Made by a program: the position numbers and the translations under genes. From the UHGV virus genome UHGV-0275551: DNA of 64,000 nucleotides; one strand, written 5' to 3'. This stretch comes from a virus. This document shows, piece by piece, positions 24,001 to 50,492 of this stretch (positions are counted from its first letter, which is position 1; the number at the start of each line of letters is the position of its first letter). The notes under the pieces are model-generated. The model ran no database searches. It was not told the origin of the DNA and was given only the letters and a program-made list of their open reading frames with translations.

Positions 24001-24006
24001 TTTATT

Positions 24007-24094
24007 TGGTGTGCCGTGTAGGAGTCGAACCTACCGAGTCTCAATGACAAGGGATTTACAGTCCCCACCGCTACCATCTACGGGATAACGACAC
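24007..24094 (-). tRNA. tRNA-Tyr (anticodon GTA), class II
   Basis: 88 nt; sense anticodon loop CTGTAAA; perfect T-arm gtagg-agtcgaa-cctac; long variable arm. Confidence 0.55.
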
Positions 24095-24102
24095 ATTTAA
24101 TT

Positions 24103-24179
24103 TGGCGGTTAGTCAGGGATTCGAACCCTGTGCCATTCGCTTAACAGGCGACCGCACATACCTTATGTGCTTCCTAACC
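24103..24179 (-). tRNA. tRNA-Asn (anticodon GTT)
   Basis: sense anticodon loop CTGTTAA; D-stem GCAC/GTGC; perfect T-arm caggg-attcgaa-ccctg. Confidence 0.55.
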
Positions 24180-24262
24180 ATGTTTAGTATTACCAGACCG
24201 TATCTTTCAATTTTTCCGCTAAAAATTTAATAAATATTGCTGTAAACGGTCTTCTGTAAATT
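24180..24262 (-). repeat. spacer unit between tRNA-Asn and the second CAT tRNA
   Basis: shares taccagaccg start and ttgctgtaaacggtcttctgtaaatttgg end with the 23641-23785 unit. Confidence 0.45.
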
Positions 24263-24339
24263 TGGAGGCGGGTGCAGGAGTCGAACCTGCCGATACCATG
24301 CTAATGAGACATGTGAGACGCCCTTTCTCTATACCCGCA
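24263..24339 (-). tRNA. tRNA with anticodon CAT, pair 1:72 mismatched (initiator-like?)
   Basis: perfect T-arm gcagg-agtcgaa-cctgc; sense anticodon loop CTCATTA (position 37 is T); acceptor pair 1:72 is T:C. Confidence 0.45.
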
Positions 24340-24430
24340 ATTCTTAATGACCAGACCAAATCTCTTCTTTGTCCGATTTACCTTCAGATGAATAAGATTA
24401 AGTTTGCTGTAATTGGTCTTCTGTCAAAAC
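24340..24430 (-). repeat. spacer unit between the CAT tRNA and tRNA-Glu
   Basis: accagaccaaa start and tttgctgtaattggtcttctgtcaaaactgg end, degenerate copy of the spacer family. Confidence 0.4.
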
Positions 24431-24508
24431 TGGCGTTCCAGAAGGGATTTGAACCCTCAGATATCCACTTTGAAAGAGTGGTGACTTTACCGTTTTGTCT
24501 ACTGGAAC
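24431..24508 (-). tRNA. tRNA-Glu (anticodon TTC)
   Basis: sense anticodon arm CCACT-CTTTCAA-AGTGG perfect; acceptor gttccag/ctggaac perfect. Confidence 0.6.
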
Positions 24509-24515
24509 ATTAATT

Positions 24516-24592
24516 TGGTCTCTGTTGGAGGACTTGAACCTCCGGCCTTACCGCCCCAAACGGAACGCTCTACCAAGCTGAGCTAAACAGAG
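24516..24592 (-). tRNA. tRNA-Pro (anticodon TGG)
   Basis: sense anticodon loop TTTGGGG; perfect T-arm ggagg-acttgaa-cctcc; D-arm GCTC-AGCTTGGTA-GAGC. Confidence 0.55.
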
Positions 24593-34293: not shown

Positions 34294-34940
34294 TTATAAA
34301 ATTTTATCGGTTGTCCCAACCTCTGGGTCACCATCATATGTGAATAAAATATCTATCCTTCTTAACAACCTCCTTAGTCTTACTCTCTATATAGTTATAT
34401 AGTACTATATAGTATCTTAGTAACTATCTAGTGGTCTTAATAGCCCCCCTGTATAAGCCTTCTAACTAGCCCTTTAATAAGCCCTCTAAACACTCTTCTA
34501 ACAAGCCTTCTTAACAACCTATACAATCACCTTAACCATCTCTCTATACCCTCTTAGAAGCTCCTATACACCTCTTAATCTCTATGTCAGCTATGATACC
34601 CTCTATAGATGTTCACTAGGTACTACTAAGCCTCTATATAGACTGTTTTAACAAACTTAACAGGAATATCTTCACAGACCTTATCTCACAAGGTCTAACA
34701 CGGTACTAACAAGGTATCTTATAAGCCTGTTTCTACCTGTATTTTTAAAAGACTGTATAGGTAATTATTCAGAATTTTAAAATTTTTATAAAATAAGACT
34801 ATCAAGTCATTTTTTAGGGTCTTTGAAGGAACTCAAAAATATCTGTAGAAGATGTATATCTGCTTGGTAGCCCTTAACAACTCCCTTACAAGTACTTTGC
34901 AAAATTTTAAAATATCCTTAACAATCTCTTAACAGTTCTC

Positions 34941-35013
34941 ACAAGCTCTTAACAACTCTTCAAAGCTCTTAACAACTCTTCAAAGCTCTTAACAACTCTT
35001 CAAAGCTCTTAAC
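34941..35013. repeat. tandem direct repeat, 20-bp unit x 3.6
   Basis: aagctcttaacaactcttca repeated head-to-tail three times plus a partial copy. Confidence 0.8.
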
Positions 35014-35895
35014 AGATTCTTAACAGAACTAACAAGGATGTAACAGTTTCTTAACAGTTGATACATAGGCTTTACAGAATCTTAACAGATGACTAACAAG
35101 AGCTAACAAGTTAATTTTTAAGAGTTATTTTGTAGGGATAATTAACAAGTTCCTAACAAGTGTTTAATCTTTTTAACAAGCTATTAACATGGTCACTATC
35201 TCTTTTCTTATCGTTCCCTTTCCCTCTTAGTGATTCTCTAAATAGCCCTCTTAAAAGCTCTCTATAGCTCCTTGTAAGCTCTTTTAAGTCTCTTCCTAGT
35301 AATTACACCCCAACTATACAGACACCTCTTTATAGGGCTTTACAGAGGCTTTAAAGGCTATGCTAAAGACTCTTACAAGGCTTTTACGTGGTCTTAACAG
35401 AGATTTAACAAGGGGCTAACAAGTCTCTAACAAGTGCCTTAAAAGCATAACTATGTAGGGATTGTTAAGAAATTGTTAAGAAAATGTTAAGGGGGCTAGC
35501 ATTTACGTAACTTTATAGCCTCTTTTACGTAACTTTTGAGTAACTTTATAGCCCCTATAACATACTTTAAAGGAACTACCAAGCCCTTTTTAGTAGTTCA
35601 CAAGAATACTAACGAGATGATAAAGCTTACACCCTTATAAGATTCTTCTAAGGCTCTGGGAAGCTCTATAAAGGGCTTTTTAGAGTGGGTTAATATGATT
35701 GCTTAAGTTAGGTTGATAAGGCTGTTATAGAGCGTTATAGAGCGTTTAAGGGGTTGCCCTTCCCTTTCGGGTTATGGGCTTATATTTAAGTTGATTTGAT
35801 AAAAGGTTATAGAGTAGACTATAGAGTTATTGCTTTTAAGGTCTGATAAGATTCTGGAAAGGGAAGGGAAAGGGTTGTATAAGGATTTGATAGAC

Positions 35896-35920
35896 GTAAA
35901 AAAGCCCCATTTAAGGGGCT
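35896..35920 (-). terminator. rho-independent terminator at the distal end of the small-gene array
   Basis: agcccc-atttaa-ggggct hairpin followed on the minus strand by TTTTTTAC. Confidence 0.55.
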
Positions 35921-35958
35921 GTAAAGGTATCTGGGGCTATTTAGCCCCGTTGCGTCGA

Positions 35959-36207
35959 TTAGTTGTAGCCTTGTTTGCTGTAGTATAGAGAGACAATCAA
36001 GTCACCCCAATAATGGTAGTGAGATTCCTCGTTTATGGCTTCTTTTACGGCATCTTTCCAGAAGTCATCAGTAGGGTTATAATCTGGTATCACCTGCTGA
36101 ATCAGCATTTTGATAAGGTCAAAGGTGTTATCTGTTCCACCGATATCGAATTTTGCATCAAGTTTGTGGCAGCCATAAGCATTAACAGTTACGCGGATAG
36201 TTGACAT
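35959..36207 (-). CDS. hypothetical small protein (cassette gene, family-A leader)
   Basis: 82-aa track ORF; ATG directly follows the conserved SD of leader 36208-36274. Confidence 0.5.
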   Translation of the reverse strand: MSTIRVTVNAYGCHKLDAKFDIGGTDNTFDLIKMLIQQVIPDYNPTDDFWKDAVKEAINEESHYHYWGDLIVSLYYSKQGYN

Positions 36208-36274
36208 AATTTAGATTCTCCAGTTTAGGACTTTGTTTAGTGGGAAGGTCATTCCCTCCCCGTTGATTAGTAAT
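36208..36274 (-). repeat. family-A leader element (5'UTR hairpin + SD)
   Basis: sense actaatcaacGGGGAGGGAATGACCTTCCCCactaa...cctaaactGGAGAatctaaATG; 8-bp stem incl. G:U. Confidence 0.6.
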
Positions 36275-36299
36275 TTACTGCATATTGGCGTAGGTTGCA
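36271..36299 (-). promoter_or_regulatory. sigma70-like promoter for 35959..36207
   Basis: -35 TTGCAA, 17-bp spacer, -10 TAAATT; the TAA of the -10 is the stop codon of the upstream gene. Confidence 0.45.
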
Positions 36300-36538
36300 A
36301 GCCTTTTTTCGTTGTATTTTGTCAGAATTTCACAAGATAGAACATCGTACATTGTAACCGCTTTGCTTTTGTCGAGGTCAAAAAAGCCAAATGCTTTACC
36401 ATCTTTGAATCCGACAACTTCGTAAGATTCTTTAATGATTTCACCATTGAACAAATCACTTTCGATACGGTGAAACAACGCTACGTCTTCTTTGTTAGTT
36501 GCAATCTGCAATAGTGTGGTTAATTCTACGTGTTCCAT
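36275..36538 (-). CDS. hypothetical small protein (cassette gene, family-A leader)
   Basis: track ORF 36275..36643 shortened to the ATG at 36538 that follows the conserved SD; the upstream extension reads through the leader. Confidence 0.5.
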   Translation of the reverse strand: MEHVELTTLLQIATNKEDVALFHRIESDLFNGEIIKESYEVVGFKDGKAFGFFDLDKSKAVTMYDVLSCEILTKYNEKRLATYANMQ

Positions 36539-36605
36539 TTTTGAATCTCCTAGTTTAAGGACTTTACTTAGTGGGAAGGTTAATCCCTCCCCGTTGATTG
36601 ACAAT
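36539..36605 (-). repeat. family-A leader element
   Basis: gaatctcctagtttaaggactttacttagtgggaaggttaatccctccccgttgatt on plus strand. Confidence 0.6.
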
Positions 36606-36631
36606 TTACAGACTTTTGATTGTCTCGTCAA
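36603..36631 (-). promoter_or_regulatory. sigma70-like promoter for 36275..36538
   Basis: -35 TTGACG, 17 bp, -10 TAAATT overlapping the stop of the 36606..37136 ORF. Confidence 0.45.
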
Positions 36632-37136
36632 TATCTTTTTCAATATCTTTTAAAGTTTTTTCTAAGTTCTTGATATTGAAGGATAAGCCTTCACCGAGAG
36701 TCTTAGAATAACCGCTAGGACGTAAATCATAAAGGCAAATTTGTTCTACATTGGAGAGGTTGACCATTTCACCGCTTACATCATAAGCTATTGATACGGT
36801 GTTTTCAGGGGCTTTATAGAACTTGTTAAGATTCTTGATAGAACGTTCATAAGCCATTTTATAACCATTTAAAAGGTCTTTAACGTGGTTGCGAACGTTT
36901 TTACACTCATCTAAGTAAATACCTAAGAATAGCGGTAACAGTTCTGCTACAGCTTGCATAAAGTGAGATACTACAACAGTAGAAACATTACGACGATGTA
37001 TATAATAAGCCCCGTTTTCTGATTTAGTGATAGTTGCAAAGTGTACACCGTTGCAACGAAATTCGAAGGTATCTTTAACGGGTTTAGTCATAACGTTAGA
37101 TGAGCGAATGTAGTTGATAGCTTGAAACTTGTTCAT
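36606..37136 (-). CDS. hypothetical protein (cassette gene, family-A leader)
   Basis: 176-aa track ORF; ATG follows conserved SD of leader 37137-37200. Confidence 0.55.
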   Translation of the reverse strand: MNKFQAINYIRSSNVMTKPVKDTFEFRCNGVHFATITKSENGAYYIHRRNVSTVVVSHFMQAVAELLPLFLGIYLDECKNVRNHVKDLLNGYKMAYERSIKNLNKFYKAPENTVSIAYDVSGEMVNLSNVEQICLYDLRPSGYSKTLGEGLSFNIKNLEKTLKDIEKDIDETIKSL

Positions 37137-37200
37137 TTTGAATCTCCTAGTTTAAGGACTTTACTTAGTGGGGAAGGTCATTCCCTCCCCGTTGATTAGT
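37137..37200 (-). repeat. family-A leader element
   Basis: gaatctcctagtttaaggactttacttagtggggaaggtcattccctccccgttgatt. Confidence 0.6.
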
Positions 37201-37229
37201 ACTATACTTGTTTTGATTTGCCTTTGCAA
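37201..37229 (-). promoter_or_regulatory. sigma70-like promoter for 36606..37136
   Basis: -35 TTGCAA, 17 bp, -10 TATAGT immediately upstream of the leader hairpin. Confidence 0.5.
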
Positions 37230-37356
37230 GCAATTTTTAAGTTTATCTATAAAGAATCTATTAAGTGAATCCCTTTTAGATAACCCCCTCGAACAAAGTT
37301 ACCAATGTCAATGGGTATTGTCAACACTTTTTTAAAAGTTTTTTGTAAGTTATTGA

Positions 37357-37698
37357 TTAACTTATGAATATTTTTTCAGGCTTTACATAGCTGATACGCT
37401 GACTTTTTAGCAGGTCATCCCAGATTAAAGCGGCAATATGTGCATAACCGGATTCACGTAAAAGCTTCATTGTTTTACTTCTCGTTTCAAAACGGCTTGC
37501 GTAGTATTCACTGTTCAAGGTCGTTTTATTCCCTTCGTTATCTGTATGGATGATTTGCATCACTTGAAAGGGGCTTACACCCTCGCCTTTGTTCCACTGT
37601 TCAAAGTATTTTAGGCACTGCATAGGTGACATCTTATCACTTACTTGAGTTGACCAAGATGAGCCAGCTTTATCGGTAATTACGGTTACATAAGCCAT
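37357..37698 (-). CDS. hypothetical protein (cassette gene, family-B leader)
   Basis: 113-aa track ORF; ATG follows conserved SD of leader 37699-37783. Confidence 0.5.
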   Translation of the reverse strand: MAYVTVITDKAGSSWSTQVSDKMSPMQCLKYFEQWNKGEGVSPFQVMQIIHTDNEGNKTTLNSEYYASRFETRSKTMKLLRESGYAHIAALIWDDLLKSQRISYVKPEKIFIS

Positions 37699-37783
37699 TT
37701 TAGAATCTCCAGTTTAGGATTTAGTGGTAAAGCTCTTTATCTGGGGCTTACTATACAGACTAATAAGCCCCATGTAAAGTACT
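37699..37783 (-). repeat. family-B leader element
   Basis: sense ...GGGGCTTA-(loop)-TAAGCCCCagataaagagctttaccactaaatcctaaactGGAGAttctaaATG. Confidence 0.6.
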
Positions 37784-38032
37784 TTAAGCGTCTTTATATT
37801 CTATCTCTGTGCACTCACCTTTTACTAGCTCAAAGGTCCAAATAATTCGTTTATACTCAATCACTACTACAGTAACAAGGTCAGTCCTCTTCTCATTGGT
37901 TTTAAAGTCTATTGTGTGGGTATACTCATAACTAGTCTTATCCTTAATTTCCCCGTAGCGTCTACACTCTTTATAGACTTCATCCATTAAGCCATTGCTA
38001 ACCATGTTTTTTAGTTGAGTTTTAGTATACAT
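37784..38032 (-). CDS. hypothetical small protein (cassette gene, family-A leader)
   Basis: 82-aa track ORF behind leader 38033-38105. Confidence 0.5.
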   Translation of the reverse strand: MYTKTQLKNMVSNGLMDEVYKECRRYGEIKDKTSYEYTHTIDFKTNEKRTDLVTVVVIEYKRIIWTFELVKGECTEIEYKDA

Positions 38033-38105
38033 TTTTTGGAATCTCCTAGTTTAAGGACTTTACTTAGTGGGGAAGGTCATTCCCTCCCCGTTGATTGATA
38101 ATTTA
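38033..38105 (-). repeat. family-A leader element with adjacent -10 TAAATT
   Basis: same GGGGAAGG..CCTCCCC hairpin and SD as other family-A copies. Confidence 0.6.
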
Positions 38106-38125
38106 CAGACTTTTATCAGGCTTGT

Positions 38126-38359
38126 CTAGTCTTTTTCAATGATAATTTCATATTGACCATCGACACTGTCGAAATAGATTCCTTCGTCATCTTCTGTCTT
38201 AAAGTAACATTGTATATCATCACTGGCGGGGTAGTCTTGTCTTGCTATCTGGCAAACTTGAATAGCATTTTCTTTACTTCCTGTAAACTCTTCAAGCCCT
38301 TTAAAGTCACATGAATGGCCGTTACAAATGGAAAGGATGAGATAAATGGTTGTAAGCAT
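38126..38359 (-). CDS. hypothetical small secreted protein
   Basis: 77-aa track ORF; hydrophobic N terminus MLTTIYLILSICNG; no family leader, preceded by hairpin cccc-tgtaa-gggg. Confidence 0.4.
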   Translation of the reverse strand: MLTTIYLILSICNGHSCDFKGLEEFTGSKENAIQVCQIARQDYPASDDIQCYFKTEDDEGIYFDSVDGQYEIIIEKD

Positions 38360-38425
38360 GATTTAAGCCCTCTAAAAGCCCCTGTAAGGGGTTAATCAGT
38401 GTTTATAAGGTGAATGTATAGGTTT

Positions 38426-38968
38426 TTAGAAAAAGACCTTTAAATCACTCTCTACAATGTTTTCTGTCAGTGTATCCATGATGTCACAAAAAACCTGAAT
38501 ACTGTCGGATTGTTGGATACTTTTAGCAAGTAGCTCCAATGTTTCATCAAGATAATTTAAATTTGGGTTATCCAGTGAAGGGAGACAAAAAGGTGAATAC
38601 ATAGCGTTGAACTCTGTTGTATAGACCTTTTTAATCCAATTTACATCAAAGTACTCTGTAAAGCTTGCTATATTTGACACGTTATCACAAGAATAATCAT
38701 CATTTAGCTCATCCTCTGGAATGTCAAGTTCTAAGATAACAATATTTTGAGTTTTCATCTGAAAAGCTGCCGTGATAGTGGCATTTCCTAGAGCTTGCTG
38801 GATACCTTCCGATGCTATCTCTTCCTCATCATCACCATAGAGTTTATTTTCTGGGTACACGTAAAAATTGCCGTCCATATCCGAACAATTCCATACACCT
38901 GATGGTTTATCACCGTTATTAATCAGGTTGATAAAGTTTTCTTGAGTAGTACCGTGAAAGCATTTCAT
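38426..38968 (-). CDS. hypothetical acidic protein (cassette gene, family-B leader)
   Basis: 180-aa track ORF behind leader 38969-39061. Confidence 0.5.
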   Translation of the reverse strand: MKCFHGTTQENFINLINNGDKPSGVWNCSDMDGNFYVYPENKLYGDDEEEIASEGIQQALGNATITAAFQMKTQNIVILELDIPEDELNDDYSCDNVSNIASFTEYFDVNWIKKVYTTEFNAMYSPFCLPSLDNPNLNYLDETLELLAKSIQQSDSIQVFCDIMDTLTENIVESDLKVFF

Positions 38969-39061
38969 TTTGAATCTCCTAGTTTAAGGATTTAGTGGTA
39001 AAGCTCTTTATCTGGGGCTTACTTTATCGAACTATAAGCCCCTTGTAAAGTACTTTATCAG
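38969..39061 (-). repeat. family-B leader element incl. promoter-like TTGTCA - 17 bp - TACTTT
   Basis: agtggtaaagctctttatctggggcttac...taagcccc..gtaaagtactttatcagttaattt on plus strand. Confidence 0.6.
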
Positions 39062-39259
39062 TTAATTTTTGACAACTTTTAAAACTGCAAGATAACCTAA
39101 GCAATAAGAATCACCGAAGAGAGTTCTACCCATGAAAGAATCATCTTTGATATCCTTTGCAGTGACTGTTTTTTCTACGCCGTGGGAAAGAACTACATCA
39201 CCAACTTTAATGTCTTTGATGTGCGTGGTTTCAATGGTTAAACCGTTGATAATAGCCAT
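39062..39259 (-). CDS. hypothetical small protein (family-A leader; ends ...VVKN)
   Basis: 65-aa track ORF; C-terminal codons and stop lie inside the conserved family-B element downstream. Confidence 0.5.
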   Translation of the reverse strand: MAIINGLTIETTHIKDIKVGDVVLSHGVEKTVTAKDIKDDSFMGRTLFGDSYCLGYLAVLKVVKN

Positions 39260-39323
39260 TTTGAATCTCCTAGTTTAAGGACTTTACTTAGTGGGGAAGG
39301 TCATTCCCTCCCCGTTGATGTGT
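39260..39323 (-). repeat. family-A leader element
   Basis: gaatctcctagtttaaggactttacttagtggggaaggtcattccctccccgttgatg. Confidence 0.6.
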
Positions 39324-39352
39324 AATTTAATCTATCTAAAAATCAGTGTCAA
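39324..39352 (-). promoter_or_regulatory. sigma70-like promoter for 39062..39259
   Basis: -35 TTGACA (perfect), 17-bp spacer, -10 TAAATT. Confidence 0.55.
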
Positions 39353-39360
39353 TAAAATTT

Positions 39361-39765
39361 TTAGAGTTCTGCATAAATTGCGTCGCAGATGTCACGAAAG
39401 TCATGATTTGCCAAATTACGTTGTAACCAAGTGGCAAAGAAATCAGCGATTGCAAAATTAGCATCATACTCAACAGATAGCCACACTTTCACGGCAAATC
39501 TAAACATTTTCAAGTCTAACTCTTTATTCATTACCTTAGATTTGCCTAACATGTCGACCATTTCATATTGTGCACCGTCTAGCGTGATACCTGCTGCAAC
39601 GTCAGCCAATGAGTTTTTTACGTTTTCAACGTCTAAGATAACGCTTTGAATCTTTCCGATAATGTTGTGCAATGTTTCATCCGGTGCTGATGATGTAATA
39701 ACATTGATTCGATTAACGGTTAAACGTGCTTTTAAGATTGACAACTCACGATTATTAATAGCCAT
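39361..39765 (-). CDS. hypothetical protein (cassette gene, family-B leader)
   Basis: 134-aa track ORF behind leader 39766-39850. Confidence 0.5.
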   Translation of the reverse strand: MAINNRELSILKARLTVNRINVITSSAPDETLHNIIGKIQSVILDVENVKNSLADVAAGITLDGAQYEMVDMLGKSKVMNKELDLKMFRFAVKVWLSVEYDANFAIADFFATWLQRNLANHDFRDICDAIYAEL

Positions 39766-39850
39766 TTTAGAATCTCCAATTTAGGATTGAGTGGTAAAGC
39801 TCTTTATCTGGGGCTTACTGTACAGACTTATAAGCCCCCTGTAAAGTACT
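39766..39850 (-). repeat. family-B leader element
   Basis: gaatctccaatttaggattgagtggtaaagctctttatctggggcttac...taagcccc. Confidence 0.6.
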
Positions 39851-40123
39851 TTATACTAAGTGCAATTTTTTACCTTTTACTATAATGTAACTCGATGTGC
39901 TATTGCTGCAAACATCCTGATAAATTCTGCGCAAACGTCCTTCATAGTATACTTTCCAGCTAGTTGGAATCTTTTTGCCGTATCCGGTAGCAGTTTTTTG
40001 GAGTCCTGCGAATTGCCAATCTAAGATATGTTGCTCAGCCTGTAAATCCTCAAAGTGCATCACACCGTCTACATAGTGACGTAGAGTGACATTTAAAGTG
40101 AGACCGTTGTTAGTAGTATACAT
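39851..40123 (-). CDS. hypothetical protein (cassette gene, degenerate family-A leader)
   Basis: 90-aa track ORF behind leader 40124-40187. Confidence 0.45.
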   Translation of the reverse strand: MYTTNNGLTLNVTLRHYVDGVMHFEDLQAEQHILDWQFAGLQKTATGYGKKIPTSWKVYYEGRLRRIYQDVCSNSTSSYIIVKGKKLHLV

Positions 40124-40187
40124 TTTAGAATCTCCTAGTTTAAGGACTTTATTTAGTAGGGTGGTTATTGCCTCCCCGTTGATGTGT
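40124..40187 (-). repeat. family-A leader element, diverged hairpin
   Basis: tagtagggtggttattgcctcccc in place of tagtggggaaggtcattccctcccc. Confidence 0.5.
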
Positions 40188-40216
40188 AATTTAATCTATC
40201 TAAAAACCAGTGTCAA
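40188..40216 (-). promoter_or_regulatory. sigma70-like promoter for 39851..40123
   Basis: -35 TTGACA, 17 bp, -10 TAAATT; flank nearly identical to the 39324-39352 copy. Confidence 0.5.
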
Positions 40217-40545
40217 CAGTTTTGTTTTCGTTTGCTCAACTCTTGAACAATTACAGTATGATAGTCTTTTAAGTCACTAATATTTAAAGCATTTATCAGA
40301 GAATTATAATCATCGACTAATTGAAAATCATCTTTGAAAATGTCGCTGATTTGATAAGCTCTCGCCCTGAATCTGAAGCTCATTTCTAACCGCTTTAATT
40401 GTTCATCGCTCAACCGCTCTAGAAAGCTCATTACAAGGCTATTGCTAACCTGTTGTGTGATTGCCTTATTTGCTAGATTATAGGCTTTATATGCCTTATA
40501 GAGCGCGAAAATGGCAATGATTGCAGTGATACCAGTCATTAACAT
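40213..40545 (-). CDS. hypothetical membrane-anchored protein
   Basis: 110-aa track ORF; N-terminal TM (ITAIIAIFALY); overlaps upstream gene by 7 nt, no own leader. Confidence 0.45.
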   Translation of the reverse strand: MLMTGITAIIAIFALYKAYKAYNLANKAITQQVSNSLVMSFLERLSDEQLKRLEMSFRFRARAYQISDIFKDDFQLVDDYNSLINALNISDLKDYHTVIVQELSKRKQNC

Positions 40546-40835
40546 GGTGCTTCCTCTTTACGTGACACTTTGCCATTTACAGTTATCTCATAAGAATCTA
40601 GTAAATCGCTTTTAGATTTGACAGGACTTTTAAGAGTATCATCATAGATATTGACTTGCAATACAGGTTTTTTATACTCCCTGCAACTATTCCATAAGCA
40701 AATCACTACACGACGACCTTTTATTTTGCCGTGTAACCATTCCATAACATCATGGCTATTTCTTGATGTTTCAATGAAATCAATTTTGTTGAGTAATTTG
40801 CTTAGATTTTCACGAACTTTATTTGATAATTTCAT
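40539..40835 (-). CDS. hypothetical protein (cassette gene, family-B leader)
   Basis: 98-aa track ORF behind leader 40836-40923. Confidence 0.5.
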   Translation of the reverse strand: MKLSNKVRENLSKLLNKIDFIETSRNSHDVMEWLHGKIKGRRVVICLWNSCREYKKPVLQVNIYDDTLKSPVKSKSDLLDSYEITVNGKVSRKEEAPC

Positions 40836-40923
40836 TTTTGAATCTCCAGTTTAGGATTGAGTGGTAAAGCTCTTTATCTGGGGCTTAAGATACCAACTTT
40901 TAAGCCCCTTGTAAAGTACTTTA
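40836..40923 (-). repeat. family-B leader element
   Basis: conserved hairpin GGGGCTTA..TAAGCCCC and SD. Confidence 0.6.
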
Positions 40924-41133
40924 TCAGTTAATTTTCAGCTTTGCATAACCTCTCATTGTACGAATTGGAGATGTTAAGGCTACGCGTCTAATATATGCCT
41001 TTTTTGTGTATACATTTGTCTTTCCGATAGTGTTTACACATGTAAAAAGATTTATTGGTGAATTTTTTAACTTCAACTGTTTATCAGCCTTCACACCCCA
41101 TCTTACAGCAGATTGTTTTCCGTTGTCAACCAC
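40924..41133 (-). CDS. hypothetical protein (GTG start) or 3' part of a frameshifted cassette gene
   Basis: 69-aa track ORF with GTG start and poor RBS; the family-B leader ATG at 41213 opens a 23-codon ORF in another frame that stops at 41142. Confidence 0.3.
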   Translation of the reverse strand: MVDNGKQSAVRWGVKADKQLKLKNSPINLFTCVNTIGKTNVYTKKAYIRRVALTSPIRTMRGYAKLKIN

Positions 41134-41213
41134 TTTCCCGCCTAACTTTTCGCTATGATGCGAGCGTCATCACGAGTTTTTACAGGAATTACAACGTTTT
41201 TGATAGTAGCCAT

Positions 41214-41301
41214 TTTTGAATCTCCAATTTAGGATTTAGTGGTAAAGCTCTTTATCTGGGGCTTACTTTATCGAACTATAAGCCCCTTGTAAAGTACTTT
41301 A
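41214..41301 (-). repeat. family-B leader element
   Basis: gaatctccaatttaggatttagtggtaaagctctttatctggggcttac...taagcccc. Confidence 0.6.
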
Positions 41302-41682
41302 TCAGTTAATTTTGAAGATTGTTACATAACCATCACTACCGATGATTTGAGACACTCCAGCTTTTTCTACTTGATAGCCCATATTTTCAAGATGATAAAC
41401 AGCATCATCGTAACCATATGCGCCACCCTGATAACGTCTCTTATCGCATCTTATCAGGTTTTTACCACGTCCAGCAAGTGCATGTAAAATGGCTTTTTCG
41501 CTTGAAAGAGTACCATCTAGCATTGTCGCCGTGTAATGGTTGATTTTATTCCCATTGATATCATACTTAAAATTAAACGAGTGAACAACAATAACGTTAC
41601 CTTTAAAATTCTCATCAAGTGACTTCTCCAGTGCGTTGCGAAAGTTGTCTTTGTTGATGAATTTAGGTGCACGGTATGCCAT
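41302..41682 (-). CDS. hypothetical protein (cassette gene, family-A leader; ends ...FKIN)
   Basis: 126-aa track ORF behind leader 41683-41750. Confidence 0.5.
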   Translation of the reverse strand: MAYRAPKFINKDNFRNALEKSLDENFKGNVIVVHSFNFKYDINGNKINHYTATMLDGTLSSEKAILHALAGRGKNLIRCDKRRYQGGAYGYDDAVYHLENMGYQVEKAGVSQIIGSDGYVTIFKIN

Positions 41683-41750
41683 TTTGAATCTCCAGTTTAG
41701 GACTTTATTTAGTGGGGAAGGTCATTACCTCCCCGTTGATGCAAATACTA
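41683..41750 (-). repeat. family-A leader element
   Basis: gaatctccagtttaggactttatttagtggggaaggtcattacctccccgttgatg. Confidence 0.6.
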
Positions 41751-41947
41751 GATAACCCCGTTCAAAGAGTCAAGAAAAATTTTAAAAATATTTTTGGAAA
41801 AACTGTAATGAAACGTGCGCACACGACTACCACAAAACAGAACACAAATCAAGAATTATTTTTCAACCCGCTACAAATTTTTCTCTTGACTTTTGGGGAG
41901 AGGTGGAGTAAGAGGGGGAGAGGGGTTGGTCTGGCTCTCTATAAAAA

Positions 41948-42140
41948 CCTACCTGCACGATTCTAAAATGATTTTTCTTGCCCGACCTGAGCGGGGTCTG
42001 CACGTTTTGAAAATGAAAAAGCTCTTTGGAGATTACCTGCACAGTTTGAAAATGAATTTTCTCTTTGGAGTTCAAAATTCTCTCTACAGATTTCTCTACA
42101 GAACTCTACCTGCACAATCCTGAAATGAAAAAGCCCTCCT
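41948..42140. repeat. four dispersed direct repeats of about 35 bp in the intergenic region
   Basis: copies of cctgcacNNttNtNaaaatgaNNtt at about 41948, 41995, 42032 and 42104. Confidence 0.55.
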
Positions 42141-42201
42141 TACCTGAAAAATTTACCAGATAAGGAAGGCTTAGTCTATTGTAAATATTATACAGAGTTT
42201 C

Positions 42202-42987
42202 TTAGTTCTTTGCGTCTAAGAAGGTAACTTCTGGTGAAGAGAAGACCGTCTCGATATCCTCATCAGTTCTTGCATAAATATATGTATCTGCATCACTGCC
42301 AAATGTTACGGCTATCCTGTGATTGCTCTTCGACAGGTGGGTAACTAGAGCGTTACTTAGAGACATCTTCTCAACCGGAGGGTTACTTTGATGTATCTTA
42401 CCTTTTCTTCGTCTGAAGAGGGTAACTGTATCATCTTTGAACGTTACTACACCTGCAAAGTATTCTGGTTCACAGTAGTTATTCCAACCTGAGCGTAACT
42501 TGTGGTACATCTCTCCTTCGTAGACATACAGATAAACATCTACACTCTTCATCACCTGATTAATGATAACTGTGACGGCTTGAGGGTCAAGTCCACCGAT
42601 ACCTGCACCAATCATAGGTAAACCAACCTTCTTCAACTGATTAACTTCACAGTATCTGTTAAGCTGTTTCAAAGATGACTCTAAAGCACTGTATCGGGCA
42701 TCTTTACCAGTCTTAAGCTGAGTGTAAAGGTTAGCTATACGACCTTGTTTTAAACGTGCTACAGAGAAATTACCCAGTAAATTTTCACAAGGTTTGTGTC
42801 CTATACCACCTGCATATAGATAAACTTCTGTATCGGTCTCATATGCTTTTGGGTAAAGTTTAGAAATCTTGTCAGCGATACCTGCACCCATTAAGTTCAT
42901 ACAGTTGCAACCGTGACCGATGATGTCAAACTTACCTTTATCAAATGCGGCAAAGATATCACCATTAATTATTTTTACAATACCCAT
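42202..42987 (-). CDS. macro-domain protein with about 100-aa C-terminal extension
   Basis: 261 aa; N-terminal IINGDIF...DIIGHGCNCMNLMGAGIADKI resembles the macro-domain ADP-ribose-binding signature. Confidence 0.55.
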   Translation of the reverse strand: MGIVKIINGDIFAAFDKGKFDIIGHGCNCMNLMGAGIADKISKLYPKAYETDTEVYLYAGGIGHKPCENLLGNFSVARLKQGRIANLYTQLKTGKDARYSALESSLKQLNRYCEVNQLKKVGLPMIGAGIGGLDPQAVTVIINQVMKSVDVYLYVYEGEMYHKLRSGWNNYCEPEYFAGVVTFKDDTVTLFRRRKGKIHQSNPPVEKMSLSNALVTHLSKSNHRIAVTFGSDADTYIYARTDEDIETVFSSPEVTFLDAKN

Positions 42988-43731: not shown

Positions 43732-44004
43732 TTACTTCCTCGTTTTGAGAACTGCTAAGATTTCTTTAGAGTCTGGTAAGAACCATGTGTAGTGATTCTC
43801 TTTGATTTCTGGATGAGTGTCAACCTTTATTTTGCACTCTTTACCAACATGCTTAAGCTGTGCTGTGATACCTTGCATAAAGATGTGACACATTACATTA
43901 TCCATAATCGTAGGTAAGAAATCAATCCTCATGTAAGTATCTTTCGGTCTCGGTAGAAGTAAGTAACCTTCTGTGTAGAAAGTTTCATCATTACTTTGTG
44001 TCAT
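43732..44004 (-). CDS. hypothetical protein
   Basis: 90-aa track ORF, coupled to o-spanin gene. Confidence 0.4.
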   Translation of the reverse strand: MTQSNDETFYTEGYLLLPRPKDTYMRIDFLPTIMDNVMCHIFMQGITAQLKHVGKECKIKVDTHPEIKENHYTWFLPDSKEILAVLKTRK

Positions 44005-44270
44005 TACTGCTTATTCCCTAATAAAATCATATCAATAAGGTTATTAGCTTTGATTGTGCACTGGTAAAATCCATCACGATAGAACTCAAGGGCTGCTGCC
44101 ACATCGCTGCCAGTATTACCTTTGACAGTGAATCTTGACTCTTCTTGAGTGTACTTGTCACCCTCACTTACTTGGGAGTTTTTGAATGTACTGTTCACTT
44201 TGTTCGTTGAACACCCTGACATAATTATCAGTAACACAAACATTATAAAACTCTGGCTTAGTTTTTTCAT
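44004..44270 (-). CDS. o-spanin (outer-membrane lipoprotein), putative
   Basis: 88 aa; signal peptide with lipobox-like IMSGC; overlaps the 3' part of the i-spanin-like gene in another frame. Confidence 0.55.
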   Translation of the reverse strand: MKKLSQSFIMFVLLIIMSGCSTNKVNSTFKNSQVSEGDKYTQEESRFTVKGNTGSDVAAALEFYRDGFYQCTIKANNLIDMILLGNKQ

Positions 44271-44511
44271 ATGTTAGTACCTCTTTTGTATGCTTATTCT
44301 TAGCAAGCACATCTTTCAAATCATTTTTGTAATTGGTGCTGAGTGTGGCTAAACCTTCCTGATAAGCATCTTTGGCAACACTTATTAGTTTCTCGTTATT
44401 TAGCTCAGTTTCAGCAACTTGGTAGTCTCTGTAAGAGTATCCTCCCCAGACACCTGTCCCAACTAAGAAAACAATTATGAAAGTAGCTTGACAGAACTCT
44501 TTAAATGTCAT
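44164..44511 (-). CDS. i-spanin, putative
   Basis: 115 aa; N-terminal TM helix (FIIVFLVGTGVWGG) then coiled-coil-like domain; overlapped arrangement with lipoprotein gene. Confidence 0.55.
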   Translation of the reverse strand: MTFKEFCQATFIIVFLVGTGVWGGYSYRDYQVAETELNNEKLISVAKDAYQEGLATLSTNYKNDLKDVLAKNKHTKEVLTYEKTKPEFYNVCVTDNYVRVFNEQSEQYIQKLPSK

Positions 44512-44529
44512 TTAACAATCTCCTGAAAT

Positions 44530-44553
44530 GAAAAAGGCTCCCGAAGGAGCCTG
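44530..44553 (-). terminator. rho-independent terminator
   Basis: aggctcc-cgaa-ggagcct hairpin followed on minus strand by TTTTTCATTTC. Confidence 0.5.
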
Positions 44554-44563
44554 TATCTTAACC

Positions 44564-45043
44564 TTAACCGAGGACTTTAGCAAGGATATTTGCAGCCATC
44601 GAAGAAGCTTTTGCAGCAGCAACTACGCCAGCTTTGACAGTGCTATCCTTAATAGCAGATACCGTTGCAGCATCAGTAAAGAGATAAGTGATTGTTTTGG
44701 AACCACTTGTAAAGGAAAGCATAAGAGTAGTTTCCAGATTGAAAGAGCGATACGGAGCACCTTCTTTAACGATACCTTCAGCACCTAACTCTGAAGCCTT
44801 ACCCATATCATAGATAGTCATCAGGTTTTCTTTGTGTGCAGTCGTTGAACCAACACCTTTTACGTGCTTCTTAACGTTCAACAATGCACGATATTCACGA
44901 ATGCTACCATCAGCTTTTACATTAACAGCACGGAAAATTTTACCTTCAAAGTTACCTTGAATCATTTTACGAACTACTTCAGATTTGTTTGCCGTATCGT
45001 CCAGTGCTACCGTAATGATATTGTTCATAAGTTCTTCTCTCAA
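44564..45043 (-). CDS. hypothetical protein
   Basis: 159-aa track ORF. Confidence 0.4.
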   Translation of the reverse strand: MREELMNNIITVALDDTANKSEVVRKMIQGNFEGKIFRAVNVKADGSIREYRALLNVKKHVKGVGSTTAHKENLMTIYDMGKASELGAEGIVKEGAPYRSFNLETTLMLSFTSGSKTITYLFTDAATVSAIKDSTVKAGVVAAAKASSMAANILAKVLG

Positions 45044-45735
45044 TGTTTAACTAACATGGTTTTAATGTGTGGAAGGATTCTGTTTACCTTCTGAACATTC
45101 TTCTCTGTATCTTCTATAAAACATACTATATCAAAGTAAGGCAGAATGCAAGACTGAATCATCCTCACTTTCAAACTTTCTGCACTTATAGAGTTAGTCC
45201 CAAAACCACGCATAAAAAGCATGTAATCATGCTCTATGTAATGCCTTAAAAACATCTCAGTAGGTATTCTCTGAGATTCACCTCTTGCTGTCAATAGTCC
45301 AATGGCAGCGTGATTAGAAATTGCATCAATAATATTGAAAACATACGTTGGTTTTGCACTTACAGAGTCAAGCAAATTGGTGTACTGTGAAAATGACCCA
45401 TCAATCAGTTCCGTTGAGCAATCTTCGTGATTAAAATTTGTCAGAACACCATCAATATCTGCTAAGATGAGGTTACCTTTTTCTACAAGGTCTTTATTGA
45501 CTATGACTAAACTGTCACGTCTTACACCTATAGTTTGTCCGGTCTCTTTGTCCACAACGTTCACAATTGGTTCTGATGTGTGGAACTCTTCAAGTGAACA
45601 TACAACTTCTCTTGCAGTATCTTCAAAATCCCTGCACTGTTCTGGAGTCCATACACAGGAATCAAGACCTAACTCATGAGGATGCAAGTCATAAGCGTGG
45701 CACAGGACTTCATCAGACTTTCTTAATTTTTTCAT
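45040..45735 (-). CDS. HAD-superfamily hydrolase (nucleotidase-like), putative
   Basis: 231 aa; motif I LILADIDGVLTN (DxDGVL) typical of HAD phosphatases. Confidence 0.45.
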   Translation of the reverse strand: MKKLRKSDEVLCHAYDLHPHELGLDSCVWTPEQCRDFEDTAREVVCSLEEFHTSEPIVNVVDKETGQTIGVRRDSLVIVNKDLVEKGNLILADIDGVLTNFNHEDCSTELIDGSFSQYTNLLDSVSAKPTYVFNIIDAISNHAAIGLLTARGESQRIPTEMFLRHYIEHDYMLFMRGFGTNSISAESLKVRMIQSCILPYFDIVCFIEDTEKNVQKVNRILPHIKTMLVKH

Positions 45736-46261
45736 GATTTACCTTAGAAAGGTTTGTTGCAAATTCACATTGAGCGATAACTTTCATATTGTTATAGACA
45801 TCTTGAGAGTATTTCTTAGCTTTAGGGATTTTGTACGAATACCCAGCATTATATGATGCTAAAACTTTTTGTAAAGTCTTCTTTGACTTTGGCTGACCAT
45901 GCACCTTTGTCCAAAACTCAAGCTCTTTGTGCGTTTCCTTCGCAGCATAGTCAAAATCTTTTAAGAGTTTCTTTTTAGCCACACTAGGACTAATTTTGTT
46001 ACGCTTTACAACAGTCTTCAAGTGATTCTGGAAGATACCATAGTCATGGGTCTTTTTATTTTCTACCTTCAGACCTAACTCTGACTCTTGTAAGGCTATA
46101 GCTGCTAGAGTGATACCCCAACCTTTACCCATGTTATTCTCACCATACTGGTAAGCTTTTAACATGTTCACTTTTTGACTAATTGATAGCTCTGGGCAGT
46201 CAACTGCATAAGATAAGTGTGCTGTAAACATTAAGCACAAACCTAGAATCAATTTCTTCAT
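45713..46261 (-). CDS. secreted lytic transglycosylase-like protein
   Basis: 182 aa; signal peptide; AIALQESELG ... YGIFQ resembles the SLT catalytic ES / GLMQ motifs. Confidence 0.45.
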   Translation of the reverse strand: MKKLILGLCLMFTAHLSYAVDCPELSISQKVNMLKAYQYGENNMGKGWGITLAAIALQESELGLKVENKKTHDYGIFQNHLKTVVKRNKISPSVAKKKLLKDFDYAAKETHKELEFWTKVHGQPKSKKTLQKVLASYNAGYSYKIPKAKKYSQDVYNNMKVIAQCEFATNLSKVNHEKIKKV

Positions 46262-46324
46262 TGGTTCTCCTGTTTAGTTTATCGTGACAACAATTATACA
46301 GCACTCTGCACAAAATACAAATAA

Positions 46325-46348
46325 AAAAGGCCGCCGAAGCAGCCTTTT
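46325..46348 (-). terminator. hairpin terminator between rIIB-like and SLT-like genes
   Basis: aaaaggc / gcctttt stem with A-run and T-run flanks (bidirectional appearance). Confidence 0.4.
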
Positions 46349-46361
46349 AAGAAATTACTTA

Positions 46362-47471
46362 TTAGATTTCACGTTTACGTTGAGAGATGAGTTCACCAGC
46401 AGTGCCAACGATGACATGCAAAGCTTCAGTCTTACCGTCCCATGCTTCCAGCACTTTACGTTGATTATCAACGATTGCTGCAACTTCATAACGAGAGGAA
46501 CGCATCTTCATATCATTGTAATCAGTTGGAACAGATACAACATCTCGTGGATGTACGCGAACCTTCAGGATTGTATCACCTGAGAAGCAACGAACATAAT
46601 CCCAAGCACCAACATGAAGACCTTGAGAGCAAGTTACGTTACGGTTATTATCAACCATCCAACGTGGCATTTCTACAATGTTACCCAAATCATTAGGCAC
46701 TTTGTAGGTGTGAGAGTCAACCAACTTGCCTTCACGAGTAGAGACTTTCTTCCAACCAATGATGTAGCCTTCTTCATCAATTTCAACATCAAGGTGAGAT
46801 ACAAATCCCCAAAGTTGTTCTACAGAATCTTTAGATGGGTTTTCCATCAGTTTTTCGAAGAACATTACAAGTCGTTCAAAACCTTTATCGCCAGTTTTCA
46901 TCATGTGAAGAATACGGTCAACCAGAGTAGAACGCATCTCAACAGCACCGTAGAATAGCTTGTCGCCTTTGATTGTGATAGCACCCTGAGTGAAGTTTTC
47001 GATAGACTTACGAATGTTCATCAGTTCAAATGCTTTCTTGAACTCACCTTTCACAACATGAACTACAATCTCTTGATAGTTCGGATGAGTAGACTCAACA
47101 ATTTCAGATTCTGAACCATAAGTCATAATTACAGAATCACCAGTAATCATGTACTCAATCTTGTCATCTTTCTGCATAGCTTCGTGCAGTTTATTTACTG
47201 GAGCTTTCTGTACAGTGTCTTTAACGACCTTTTCAACTGGTTTGCCAGCTTTCTTTTTAAAAGTCTTAGCAACTTGTTTCAAAGTCTTCGTAGCTGGTGT
47301 AGAAGTTGCCTTCTTCTTGCCTTTTAAGGTTGCTTCATGACGCTCTACAGCACGACCAACTGAACGGGTTGAAGTATTGAACTTCTGTGCAATAGCTGTT
47401 TTAGTCAGCTTACCTTCTTTAACCAGTTTGTAAATTTCTGCGTCAATCTGTGCTTTAGTTTTAGTAGTCAT
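46362..47471 (-). CDS. rIIB: rIIB-like protein, putative
   Basis: 369-aa track ORF immediately downstream of the rIIA-like gene; assignment by synteny. Confidence 0.35.
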   Translation of the reverse strand: MTTKTKAQIDAEIYKLVKEGKLTKTAIAQKFNTSTRSVGRAVERHEATLKGKKKATSTPATKTLKQVAKTFKKKAGKPVEKVVKDTVQKAPVNKLHEAMQKDDKIEYMITGDSVIMTYGSESEIVESTHPNYQEIVVHVVKGEFKKAFELMNIRKSIENFTQGAITIKGDKLFYGAVEMRSTLVDRILHMMKTGDKGFERLVMFFEKLMENPSKDSVEQLWGFVSHLDVEIDEEGYIIGWKKVSTREGKLVDSHTYKVPNDLGNIVEMPRWMVDNNRNVTCSQGLHVGAWDYVRCFSGDTILKVRVHPRDVVSVPTDYNDMKMRSSRYEVAAIVDNQRKVLEAWDGKTEALHVIVGTAGELISQRKREI

Positions 47472-47550
47472 CTTATTACTCTCTCTTGTTAGTTAATCAA
47501 TCAATTTGTGAGGCTATTCTAAGGGGCTTCAAAGCCCCTTGTCAAACACT

Positions 47551-49917: not shown

Positions 49918-49945
49918 AATACTTTCCTCTTAGTTTACTGTTAAA

Positions 49946-50122
49946 TTACTTATTAAACATTTTACCAGAACCACCACACATAGGGCAACAACCTGCTCTT
50001 GTATACCCTTCCCCATTGCAGTAATCACACTTCTTGTACTCTGCATAGTACTTGCAAAGAAGGTAAACAAATACTGCTACGCTGCCAAGTGACAGTAAAA
50101 TTTCTATCCAATATGCTTGCAT
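49946..50122 (-). CDS. small membrane-anchored zinc-finger protein (not in track, 58 aa)
   Basis: hand-translated: MQAYWIEILLSLGSVAVFVYLLCKYYAEYKKCDYCNGEGYTRAGCCPMCGGSGKMFNK; GAGAGGTGA RBS; two CxxCxGxG motifs. Confidence 0.45.
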   Translation of the reverse strand: MQAYWIEILLSLGSVAVFVYLLCKYYAEYKKCDYCNGEGYTRAGCCPMCGGSGKMFNK

Positions 50123-50439
50123 GACTCACCTCTCATATTTTTGTAAAGGATAAAGCTTCTGTCATGGACGATACTTGTAGATACTGCAAAGTTACTTTCA
50201 AGCATCTGTTTGTTTGGATTGTAGAAGCTTTTTTTAAACTCGTCAAGCGCAAATTGGTGGTTGTCTGGAAGACCTTTTACACAAACTTTTATTGTGACTG
50301 CTGCTGCAATCTTACCATTCAGTTCTTCTTTAGCTGCTACTAAAATTTTGTTAAGGAACTTTTTACCATCTTCAGGTTTCTTAATATTCTCCCAACGTTC
50401 TTCTAAGACAATGTTGATGTTCATCTCTTTGATTTTCAT
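50104..50439 (-). CDS. hypothetical protein
   Basis: 111-aa track ORF; GGAGAAG RBS after the upstream terminator. Confidence 0.45.
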   Translation of the reverse strand: MKIKEMNINIVLEERWENIKKPEDGKKFLNKILVAAKEELNGKIAAAVTIKVCVKGLPDNHQFALDEFKKSFYNPNKQMLESNFAVSTSIVHDRSFILYKNMRGESCKHIG

Positions 50440-50451
50440 AATCTTCTCCAG

Positions 50452-50479
50452 AAATTAAAAAGGCTCCCGTAGGAGCCTC
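50452..50479 (-). terminator. rho-independent terminator after the NadV-like gene
   Basis: aggctcc-cgt-aggagcct hairpin followed on minus strand by TTTTAATTT. Confidence 0.55.
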
Positions 50480-50492
50480 TTATCATATACTT

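Follow-up and report, generated by a model that had tools for sequence, protein, structure and literature searches.

We analyzed an array of small genes in UHGV virus genome UHGV-0275551 (a 64,000-nt stretch of DNA, hereafter the 64-kb window), in which the genes are separated by two families of repeated leader, designated A and B. Results of this analysis showed that every leader copy with a gene directly upstream contains the stop codon of that gene (12 copies surveyed). The window derives from a wV8-type Felixounavirus: positions 38000-42200 are 98.9% identical to Escherichia phage wV8 over their full length, and ~250 Felix O1-like phage records match this segment. We consider it probable that these genes form the early hyperplastic array of a Felix O1-like myovirus, in which two families of composite cassette lie between the genes and are the functional counterpart of the mobile promoter-early stem-loop cassettes (PeSLs) of the T4-type phages phi1, RB49 and others (Arbiol et al. 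2010, PMC2839356; Comeau et al. 2014, PMC4122927). The cassettes would begin at, or no more than ~14 codons before, the end of the preceding open reading frame (ORF), and thus the stop codon and C-terminal tail of that ORF would themselves be cassette sequence.

Two families of composite leader lie between the genes of the array

The array (35959-41790, minus strand; 5.9 kb), delimited from the ORF list and the junctions, contains 14 small ORFs of unknown function. An A or B leader stands 5' of each gene with two exceptions, a gene that overlaps its neighbour and one that has a terminator-like hairpin of its own. Repeat finding and junction inspection identified 12 intergenic copies, 5 of family B and 7 of family A, the latter spanning 36205-41790, and the composite cassettes of both families are 90-105 nt in length. 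All features of the array described below, including every gene considered in an earlier note on this DNA, are on the minus strand.

Read on that strand, family A consists of an A-rich tract, TTGACA, 17 nt, TAAATT, ACACATCAAC, GGGGAGGGAATGACCTTCCCC and ACTAAGTAAAGTCCTTAAACTAGGAGATTCAAAATG, i.e., the -35 element, TTGACA or TTGCAA, is separated by 17 nt from the -10 element TAAATT, and a GC-rich hairpin follows 10 nt later, before a Shine-Dalgarno sequence and ATG. Family B consists of an optional AAAATTAACTGA, TAAAGTAC, TTTACA, one nucleotide of any kind, GGGGCTTA-13 nt-TAAGCCCC, and AGATAAAGAGCTTTACCACT..CCTAAAYTGGAGATTCAAAAATG. The 5' strand of its helix carries the stop codons (TGA and/or TAA) and the predicted -35 hexamer TTTACA, the apical loop carries the predicted -10 hexamer TAnnnT, and the 3' strand is the invariant AGATAAAGAGCTTTAC, which is followed by an unstructured leader with a Shine-Dalgarno sequence and ATG. 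The leader at 41211-41313, identified from the repeat and its junction between the 126-amino-acid (aa) gene (41302-41682) and a frameshifted gene described below, has all of these parts: AAAATTAACTGA, the TAAAGTACTTTA palindrome, the -35 TTTACA, the hairpin GGGGCTTA..TAAGCCCC, AGATAAAGAGCTTTAC, a Shine-Dalgarno sequence and ATG. Its predicted promoter is TTTACA-17-TAAAGT at 41293-41265, with the -10 TAAAGT in the hairpin loop, and its minimum free energy is -25.3 kcal/mol (z -4.0).

Array genes terminate inside the downstream leader

The earlier note had proposed that genes preceding a family-B leader end in a common K(I/V)N-stop encoded by a conserved block of that leader, and that genes preceding a family-A leader place their stop within the -10 element TAAATT. 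For family B, the stop was indeed inside the repeat in all five copies, in each case within 12 nt 5' of AGTACTTTACA, but the common terminus was not general. The 12-mer AAAATTAACTGA was found exactly 3 times in the 64-kb window versus 0.07 expected, a count that 0 of 100 shuffles reached. All three copies were at an equal offset 5' of the B hairpin, and each contained the stop codon of the upstream ORF. However, this 12-mer was present in only 3 of the 5 family-B copies, and the genes preceding the other two end in HLV and KDA.

The three K(I/V)N termini also differ in origin. The FKIN (gene 41302-41682) and LKIN junctions are alike, both being encoded by AAA ATT AAC TGA. VVKN, the end of the 65-aa gene at 39062-39259 (stop TAA 39062-39064), which precedes the family-B leader at 38966-39069 (repeat and junction), is instead encoded by (A)AA AAT TAA, in a different frame and with another stop codon, and therefore the peptides only look alike. 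The LKIN ORF (40924-41133, GTG start; stop TGA 40924-40926), which precedes the leader at 40833-40935 (TTTACA-17-TATCTT; 5' of the 98-aa gene 40539-40835), was found to be the out-of-frame remainder of a 291-nt gene, 40924-41213 (96 codons). This gene is frameshifted after codon 21 by an A5-to-A4 deletion at 41140-41160 relative to wV8 and typing phage 12, in which the equivalent gene is intact and has the C-terminus KLKIS. Either the gene is truly a pseudogene or the deletion is a sequencing error in a homopolymer run.

At the two remaining family-B junctions, the 90-aa gene ends in ..HLV on the TAA of TAAAGTAC at 39851-39853, within the leader at 39763-39865 (TTTACA-17-TACAGT), which has no AAAATTAAC block, and the 82-aa gene ends in ..KDA on the TAA of TAAAGTAC at 37784-37786, within the leader at 37696-37798 (TTTACA-17-TATAGT). 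Therefore, the block common to all five B copies starts at this TAA and not at AAAATTAAC.

In family A, the stop was within the promoter block in 5 of 5 copies with an ORF directly upstream. The -10 placement held for two of these: the stop of the 176-aa gene (TAA 36606-36608; leader 36538-36631, TTGACG-17-TAAATT) and that of the 87-aa gene (TAA 36275-36277; leader 36205-36300, read by eye from the junction print) each form the start of TAAATT. The -35, spacer and -10 of the former lie within the last 9 codons of the gene, and TTGCAA-17-TAAATT of the latter lies within the gene end. Both are outside 38969-41301, the region to which the earlier note referred, and inside that region the stops were found elsewhere in the block. 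The stop of the 110-aa gene (40213-40545; TGA 40213-40215) is the TGA of the -35 hexamer TTGACA in the leader at 40121-40216, which has a degraded hairpin (-7.1 kcal/mol), and the stop of the 134-aa gene (TAA 39361-39363) is in the AT tract, 9 nt 5' of the -35 TTGACA of the leader at 39257-39363. In the fifth copy, the stop of the 77-aa gene (TAG 38126-38128) forms the start of the -35 hexamer TAGACA (leader 38030-38128). The other two family-A copies are the first leader of the array (41680-41790; TTGACT-17-TAGTAT, GC hairpin, Shine-Dalgarno sequence and ATG), which has no ORF directly upstream and is 5' of the 126-aa gene, and the leader that closes a 223-nt intergenic stretch (37134-37229; TTGCAA-17-TATAGT). 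Spacer homologous to that preceding the latter is coding in other genomes. Additional fuzzy matches to the family-A pattern, at the 113-aa gene and in the terminal-repeat region, were discarded, being without a Shine-Dalgarno site or ATG.

Stop placement and C-terminal tails follow the leader in related genomes

We compared homologous arrays from eleven Felix O1-like genomes, one Suspvirus and one Erwinia Kolesnikvirus, in which ORFs were clustered into families by all-vs-all blastp (E 1e-5, 50% coverage) and every junction was tabulated. IMG/VR loci, which are short fragments, were not used for gene order and served only to extend the range of tail variants surveyed. Of 64 family-B junctions, representing 12 unrelated gene families in 12-14 genomes, 63 had the stop 35-43 nt 5' of the 3' hairpin arm, i.e., in an 8-nt zone. 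The stop was the TAA of TAAAGTAC in 30 junctions, and a TGA or TAA one codon earlier (tandem stop) in 21. The 48 family-A junctions fell into three discrete classes, with the stop in the -10 (16), the -35 (22) or the upstream AT tract (10). Queries with the A and B leaders matched only Felix O1-like genomes of ~85-90 kb, and the leader architecture was also observed in Mooglevirus, Suspvirus and Kolesnikvirus. Erwinia phage Omen retains TAA-AAAG(T/A)GCTTTACA-hairpin-GATAAAGAGCTTT, with the stem GGGG/CCCC changed to GGTG/CACC.

Genome compaction and chance would account for such placement if genes were simply packed tightly, stop triplets happened to occur in AT-rich hexamers and the K-I-N tails were coincidental. 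TTGACA and TAAATT inherently contain stop triplets, the 12-mer is found in only three of five B copies, one of them read in another frame, and tail variability is just modestly raised. We nevertheless judge this explanation to be very unlikely, given the exact 12-mer present three times versus 0.07 expected and the 8-nt zone occupied across unrelated gene families and four genera, as well as the behavior of one spacer. In most genomes this promoter spacer, ..ATCAAAACAAG-TAAATT, lies upstream of one gene and is non-coding, and in Mordin, SUSP1 and one IMG/VR contig it encodes the ..NQNK/..YQNK tails of unrelated ORFs. Mordin itself has two unrelated genes with the tail IKNQNK, which this promoter block encodes in both.

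The ORFs themselves are well conserved between genomes, and orthologous proteins aligned cleanly up to the last 1-3 residues and then diverged. Tails of gene family F8 (41302-41682) were TIFKIN, TFKINK, IFKINE, TIFKIK and TTFKIR; those of F14 (39062-39259) were VVKNNK, VVKN, VVKINK and VVKNNR; those of F3 (40213-40545) were KRKQNC, QSV, NFS, NSS and NLS, as well as ..IKNQNK, which is 5 residues longer and has its stop in the -10; and those of F23, a family absent from the window, were YYYDK, DA, DI, DV and NI. For F3, F8 and F14, different tails accompanied different variants of the downstream leader. In F3, for example, KRKQNC or QSV was found with one A variant, and KRKNFS or NSS with another. 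Junction comparison also showed that identity does not decay to background exactly at the stop codon.

Selection on the protein, for a C-terminal tag or interaction motif, or else paralogy, is a further way to explain shared tails, and a loose GY..(L/F)K(I/V)N is found near the end of three families (..GYVTIFKIN, ..RGYAKLKIN, ..GYLAVLKVVKN). Yet exactly those residues vary (KIN, KINK, KINE, KIK and KIR; KNNK, KN, KINK and KNNR), VVKN is read from a different frame of the same DNA, and the three families match different PHROGs and form separate clusters in the all-vs-all blastp. A protein-level motif was rejected on the finding that the tails are the least conserved part of the orthologues, and we give this explanation very little credence.

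Judged from these junctions, the repeat does reach into coding sequence and determines C-terminal residues. The proposal of the earlier note that the repeat dictates the C termini was thus upheld insofar as tails follow leader sub-variants. However, no orthologue in our sample was followed by an A leader in one genome and a B leader in another, and therefore the stronger statement that leader type dictates the terminal tripeptide is testable between sub-variants only.

Predicted promoters and hairpins of the leaders

A consensus scan recovered a -35/17-nt/-10 promoter at the equivalent repeat position in 11 of 12 leaders. Family-A promoters consist of TTGACA, TTGCAA or TAGACA, 17 nt, and TAAATT or TATAGT. 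In 34 aligned family-B copies, CTTTACA was invariant, as were the loop residues T, A and T at -12, -11 and -7, with the rest of the loop varying, and 59 of 61 unique B elements had TAnnnT at a distance of 17 +/- 1 nt from TTTACA. Host sigma-70 polymerase would fire these promoters early in infection.

The family-B leader RNA folds into an outer helix of 2+6+5 pairs (UGAUAAAGUACUUUA with UAAAGAGCUUUACCA), a 3x3 internal loop and an inner helix of 9 pairs, forming an interrupted helix of 22 bp (~-25 kcal/mol; z-scores -2.4 to -5.5). Pairing was maintained in 92.7% of cells in the 34 aligned copies, versus 33-60% with the partner strand slid, and in 1192 of 1220 cells in the 61 unique elements (14 genomes, four genera), a count that was registered to include sequences starting CTGATAAAG. 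Compensatory changes, in counts that include related sequences and do not represent independent events, were G-C to U-A (4 elements), U-A to A-U (50 vs 11) and A-U to U-A (47 vs 8), and the apical position exhibited five pair types. A further G-C to U-A change (4 elements) is in the outer helix, where it couples the left half-site of the first TAAAG..CTTTA motif with the right half-site of the second, which favors intramolecular pairing over two independent protein-binding palindromes.

This covariation bears on whether the B inverted repeat acts mainly as DNA, either as a repressor operator pair (TAAAG-NN-CTTTA flanking the promoter) or as a cruciform or attC-like recombination site. TAAAGTACTTTA is a perfect 12-bp palindrome that overlaps the -35, a near-copy, TAAAGAGCTTTA, is just downstream of the predicted start, a tandem half-copy in Mordin (see below) is joined at CTTTAC, and the pairing evidence fits a single-stranded DNA hairpin as well as it fits RNA. 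Like attC of integrons, the B element is an imperfect inverted repeat at the 3' end of a small ORF, at or over its stop codon, and ORF and repeat are gained and lost together. However, the covarying pair joins half-sites that belong to different palindromes, and integron cassettes are promoterless and have the IntI integrase and a conserved core, whereas the units here each have their own promoter and ribosome-binding site. An integron attC cassette was rejected, as the aligned B elements have no GTTRRRY core and every unit has a promoter. No integrase or other recombinase match was found in a search that covered ten array proteins and not the whole genome. Altogether, a function of the B repeat mainly at the DNA level seems unlikely, if somewhat less so than the two explanations weighed above.

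A transcript from the B promoter would begin near AGAUAAAG, past the helix, and would be essentially unstructured (-2.7 kcal/mol); only read-through RNA can form the B helix. The role of the helix in such transcripts would be to attenuate them, to provide a processing site or to stabilize 3' ends, and it has the shape of an RNase III site, an irregular duplex of ~20-22 bp. Intercistronic RNase III hairpins of the phage T7 early region likewise have a ~20-bp irregular helix with an internal loop between cistrons, and cleavage at them would leave the upstream mRNA with a hairpin at its 3' end. Unlike family B, the T7 sites contain no internal promoters, and the likeness of the Felix O1-like elements to them is of shape only. 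The family-A hairpin folded in 26 of 26 variants (-5 to -17 kcal/mol), 10 nt downstream of the -10. With 2-4 nt between it and the predicted transcript start, it would be located at the 5' extremity of the RNA, which it would stabilize. A search of 35000-42500 against Rfam 15 at a permissive threshold found no credible family; the only match was a chance microRNA model (25.7 bits versus a 90-bit threshold, E = 0.18).

We suggest, tentatively, that the B element (~60 nt) might perform three duties, as an early sigma-70 promoter in DNA, as an RNase III-type processing or stabilizing helix in read-through RNA and, through the 5' strand of that helix, as the stop codon and last residues of a gene, such that translation termination, RNA processing and internal initiation would be coupled physically at each junction and gene conversion between copies would keep rewriting C-termini.

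Genes are gained and lost at leader boundaries

In the gene-order table (12 genomes), the presence or absence of a gene always involved one ORF plus one leader, with breakpoints within leaders. Phage phiWec177 is without gene 40924-41213, and its single leader at this position consists of the 5' half of the 41211-41313 leader and the 3' half of the 40833-40935 leader, which places the crossover within a 28-nt invariant sequence, TAAGCCCCAGATAAAGAGCTTTACCACT. In typing phage 1 (~98% identity to the window), an ORF plus B leader, 263 nt in total, is inserted and is flanked by a 34-nt duplicated leader tail. Within the window, the leaders at 38966-39069 and 41211-41313 are identical over 81 nt, including the 12-mer, and at the former junction most other genomes have a different loop and AAAAATAACAAA in place of the 12-mer. 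Homologous recombination or gene conversion among the ~12 copies per genome would insert, delete and swap ORFs, and a conversion tract that reaches the 5' edge of a cassette would rewrite the last codons of the upstream ORF.

The leader does not behave as a single unit. Leaders with an A 5' module and those with a B 5' module were both found with either Shine-Dalgarno variant (23, 34, 39 and 17 copies), the Shine-Dalgarno and spacer variants occur in all four combinations, and hybrid leaders with an A hairpin and B tail or a B helix and A tail exist. As far as these combinations indicate, the leader is divisible: its 5' part (stop, promoter and hairpin) tends to go with the upstream gene, and the tail and Shine-Dalgarno variants reassort freely. 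The earlier note had regarded promoter plus leader, and not the ORF, as the conserved recombination module. Gain and loss were indeed bounded by leaders, but the leader is divisible and the ORFs are well conserved. Overall, the central idea of that note holds in substance, several of its details are incorrect, and its treatment of the leader as a single module is an overstatement.

Two further features of the leaders were observed. Among 142 leaders (e.g., 38975-38990 and 41220-41235), the Shine-Dalgarno region was CCT-AAAYT-GGAG in 87 and CCTT-AAACT-AGGAG in 55, two haplotypes between which there were no intermediates. The coupled T and A insertions that distinguish them extend by one U-A pair the small hairpin in which the Shine-Dalgarno sequence is sequestered, and their coupling could reflect structural selection or simple co-conversion. 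In Mordin (locus L001, sense-strand 3036-3092), B elements occur in tandem, the first ending after AGATAAAGAGCTTTACCA and fused to ACTTTACATGGGG of the second, which points to recombination between two CTTTAC half-sites within the B element.

Several of our observations weigh against the reading of these leaders as PeSL-like cassettes that set the ends of upstream genes. The variability of the tails is in only modest excess, with 19 of 48 columns variable in the last three positions versus 398 of 1715 elsewhere (Fisher p = 0.015), and tails that overlap the -35 or -10 (..IIIEKD, ..TYANMQ and ..AIYAEL) never vary. The downstream leader family is almost always constant for a given gene family, and thus co-inheritance of a gene with its 3' flank is not fully separable from dictation of the tail by the repeat. 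Several tail variants are single-base changes in A/T runs, which could be produced by homopolymer slippage instead of recombination. The total of promoter-like sites in the region, 32 versus 22.3 +/- 4.7 in shuffles, is not significant, so the argument for promoters rests on their positional coherence and conservation. Transcript starts and processing at the leaders are predictions from sequence, and the relatedness of the elements counted in the compensatory changes tempers the case for the helix. Finally, neither hairpin has a U-tract on its 3' side, which is occupied by AGATAAAG in family B and by ACTAAGTA in family A.

Genomic setting of the array

All ten array proteins tested (10/10) matched PHROGs of unknown function. 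A terminator scan found canonical intrinsic terminators on the minus strand only at the ends of the array, at 42131-42172, 3' of a macro-domain phosphatase gene (the upstream boundary), and at 35903-35920, 3' of the last array gene (the downstream boundary). The former is also annotated in wV8, AYO145A and Felix O1 (t13). This result and the missing U-tracts led us to reject the leader hairpins as intrinsic terminators. The array is hyperplastic: at least 80% of 35500-42500 was covered by 9 of 258 related records, compared with 211 of 275 for the neighbouring block 44000-51000. In Felix O1, reverse transcription PCR detected array ORFs 16, 20, 21 and 22 at 5 min after infection and ORFs 17, 19 and 23 at 25 min (PMC3185647), and genes with A and B leaders showed no difference in expression timing in that table.

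Additional features were observed in and around the array. The junction between the 180-aa and 77-aa genes (38360-38425) has neither an A nor a B leader; it contains a short hairpin, CCCCTTACAGGGG and then CTTTTAGAG, which is a rho-independent terminator according to the wV8 annotation. Between the phosphatase terminator and the first A promoter there are ~340 nt (41790-42130) that contain GTGCAGGTA motifs and a 34-nt duplication (41998-42070), and wV8 has an annotated 165-nt gene within the equivalent stretch. On the other side of the array, 34866-35496 is 88-97% identical to the 581-bp direct terminal repeat annotated in phage Pr103Blw, suggesting that the physical genome end is probably just downstream of the array, and tandem repeats of 10-bp period, of the CTCTTAACA type, are found at 34923-35022.

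Elsewhere in the window, a cluster of 26 tRNA genes is located at 19092-24592 (minus strand), and several of the direct-repeat families D4 and D7-D10 reported by the repeat finder are tRNA arms only. A common AAAAAGGCTCCCGAAGGAGCC-type repeat at 44519-44552, 46312-46345 and 50445-50478 corresponds to the Felix O1 rho-independent terminators t2 and t5. GenBank record GU169904 (Staphylococcus phage SA1, 147 kb) has, at ~130-134 kb, a segment of a Felix O1-like array with ~90-99% identity to the window, and this record looks like a chimeric or contaminated assembly.

Relationship to PeSLs and to previously annotated repeats

PeSLs are defined with an upstream stop codon in an AT-rich region at the start of the cassette (Fig. 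2 legend, PMC2839356). The leaders described here resemble them in being repeated intergenic composites in hyperplastic regions of small genes of unknown function, and in the order of their parts: a stop in an AT-rich tract, sigma-70-type -35 and -10 hexamers, a GC-rich stem-loop, a Shine-Dalgarno sequence and a start codon. In PeSLs the stem-loop either separates or overlaps the hexamers, the family-B arrangement, or closely follows the -10, the family-A arrangement, and in both systems close relatives differ by gene insertions and deletions bounded by the motif. The differences are also clear. The cassettes here are from Ounavirinae (~88 kb) and have no detectable sequence homology to the T4-type motifs, and the leader queries matched only Felix O1-like records, which makes them analogues of PeSLs that do not belong to that family by descent. 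They form two families that are sharply defined and highly conserved, where PeSLs are a loose motif class, and family B extends into a covarying two-helix structure of 22 bp. Moreover, beyond the stop codon, up to 14 codons of the upstream gene can be promoter sequence. The promoter and terminator activities of PeSLs and their mini-circles have been demonstrated experimentally, whereas the promoters in the cassettes of the Felix O1 group are predicted from sequence.

Previously, 57-bp and 39-bp direct repeats were listed for Felix O1, without interpretation (Whichard et al. 2010, PMC3185647). The longer one is the B helix core and the shorter one is the A promoter. The GenBank record of wV8 annotates these repeats as DR_1 to DR_9, with DR_1 overlapping the ends of genes 14 and 20. 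The wV8 paper makes no mention of repeats or promoters, the PhageMaP/Bas63 preprint contains nothing on the A or B repeats, and our literature search found no interpretation of them in Felix O1-like phages. What is known, then, is that these sequences are direct repeats, and what is new is their reading as PeSL-like promoter/hairpin cassettes. The part with the most potential for novelty is the conserved B helix, which overlaps a predicted promoter and a gene end and may have a role in RNA processing or as a stabilizer.

Implications

The PeSL idea, that portable units of promoter, stem-loop and ribosome-binding site allow new genes to be plugged in and expressed, would extend by this reading beyond the T4-type phages to a second phage group, which is unrelated, virulent and in wide use. 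This group includes Felix O1, wV8 and many relatives that are used in phage typing or were isolated for biocontrol or therapy. For annotation, the A and B leaders mark the true start codons in the array, and since the ends of array genes are set by the leader, their C-terminal tails are unreliable as markers of homology. The B helix is a well-conserved, covarying structured element that can be tested directly for RNA processing, and the leaders suggest natural, pre-equipped insertion sites for the engineering of Felix O1-like phages.

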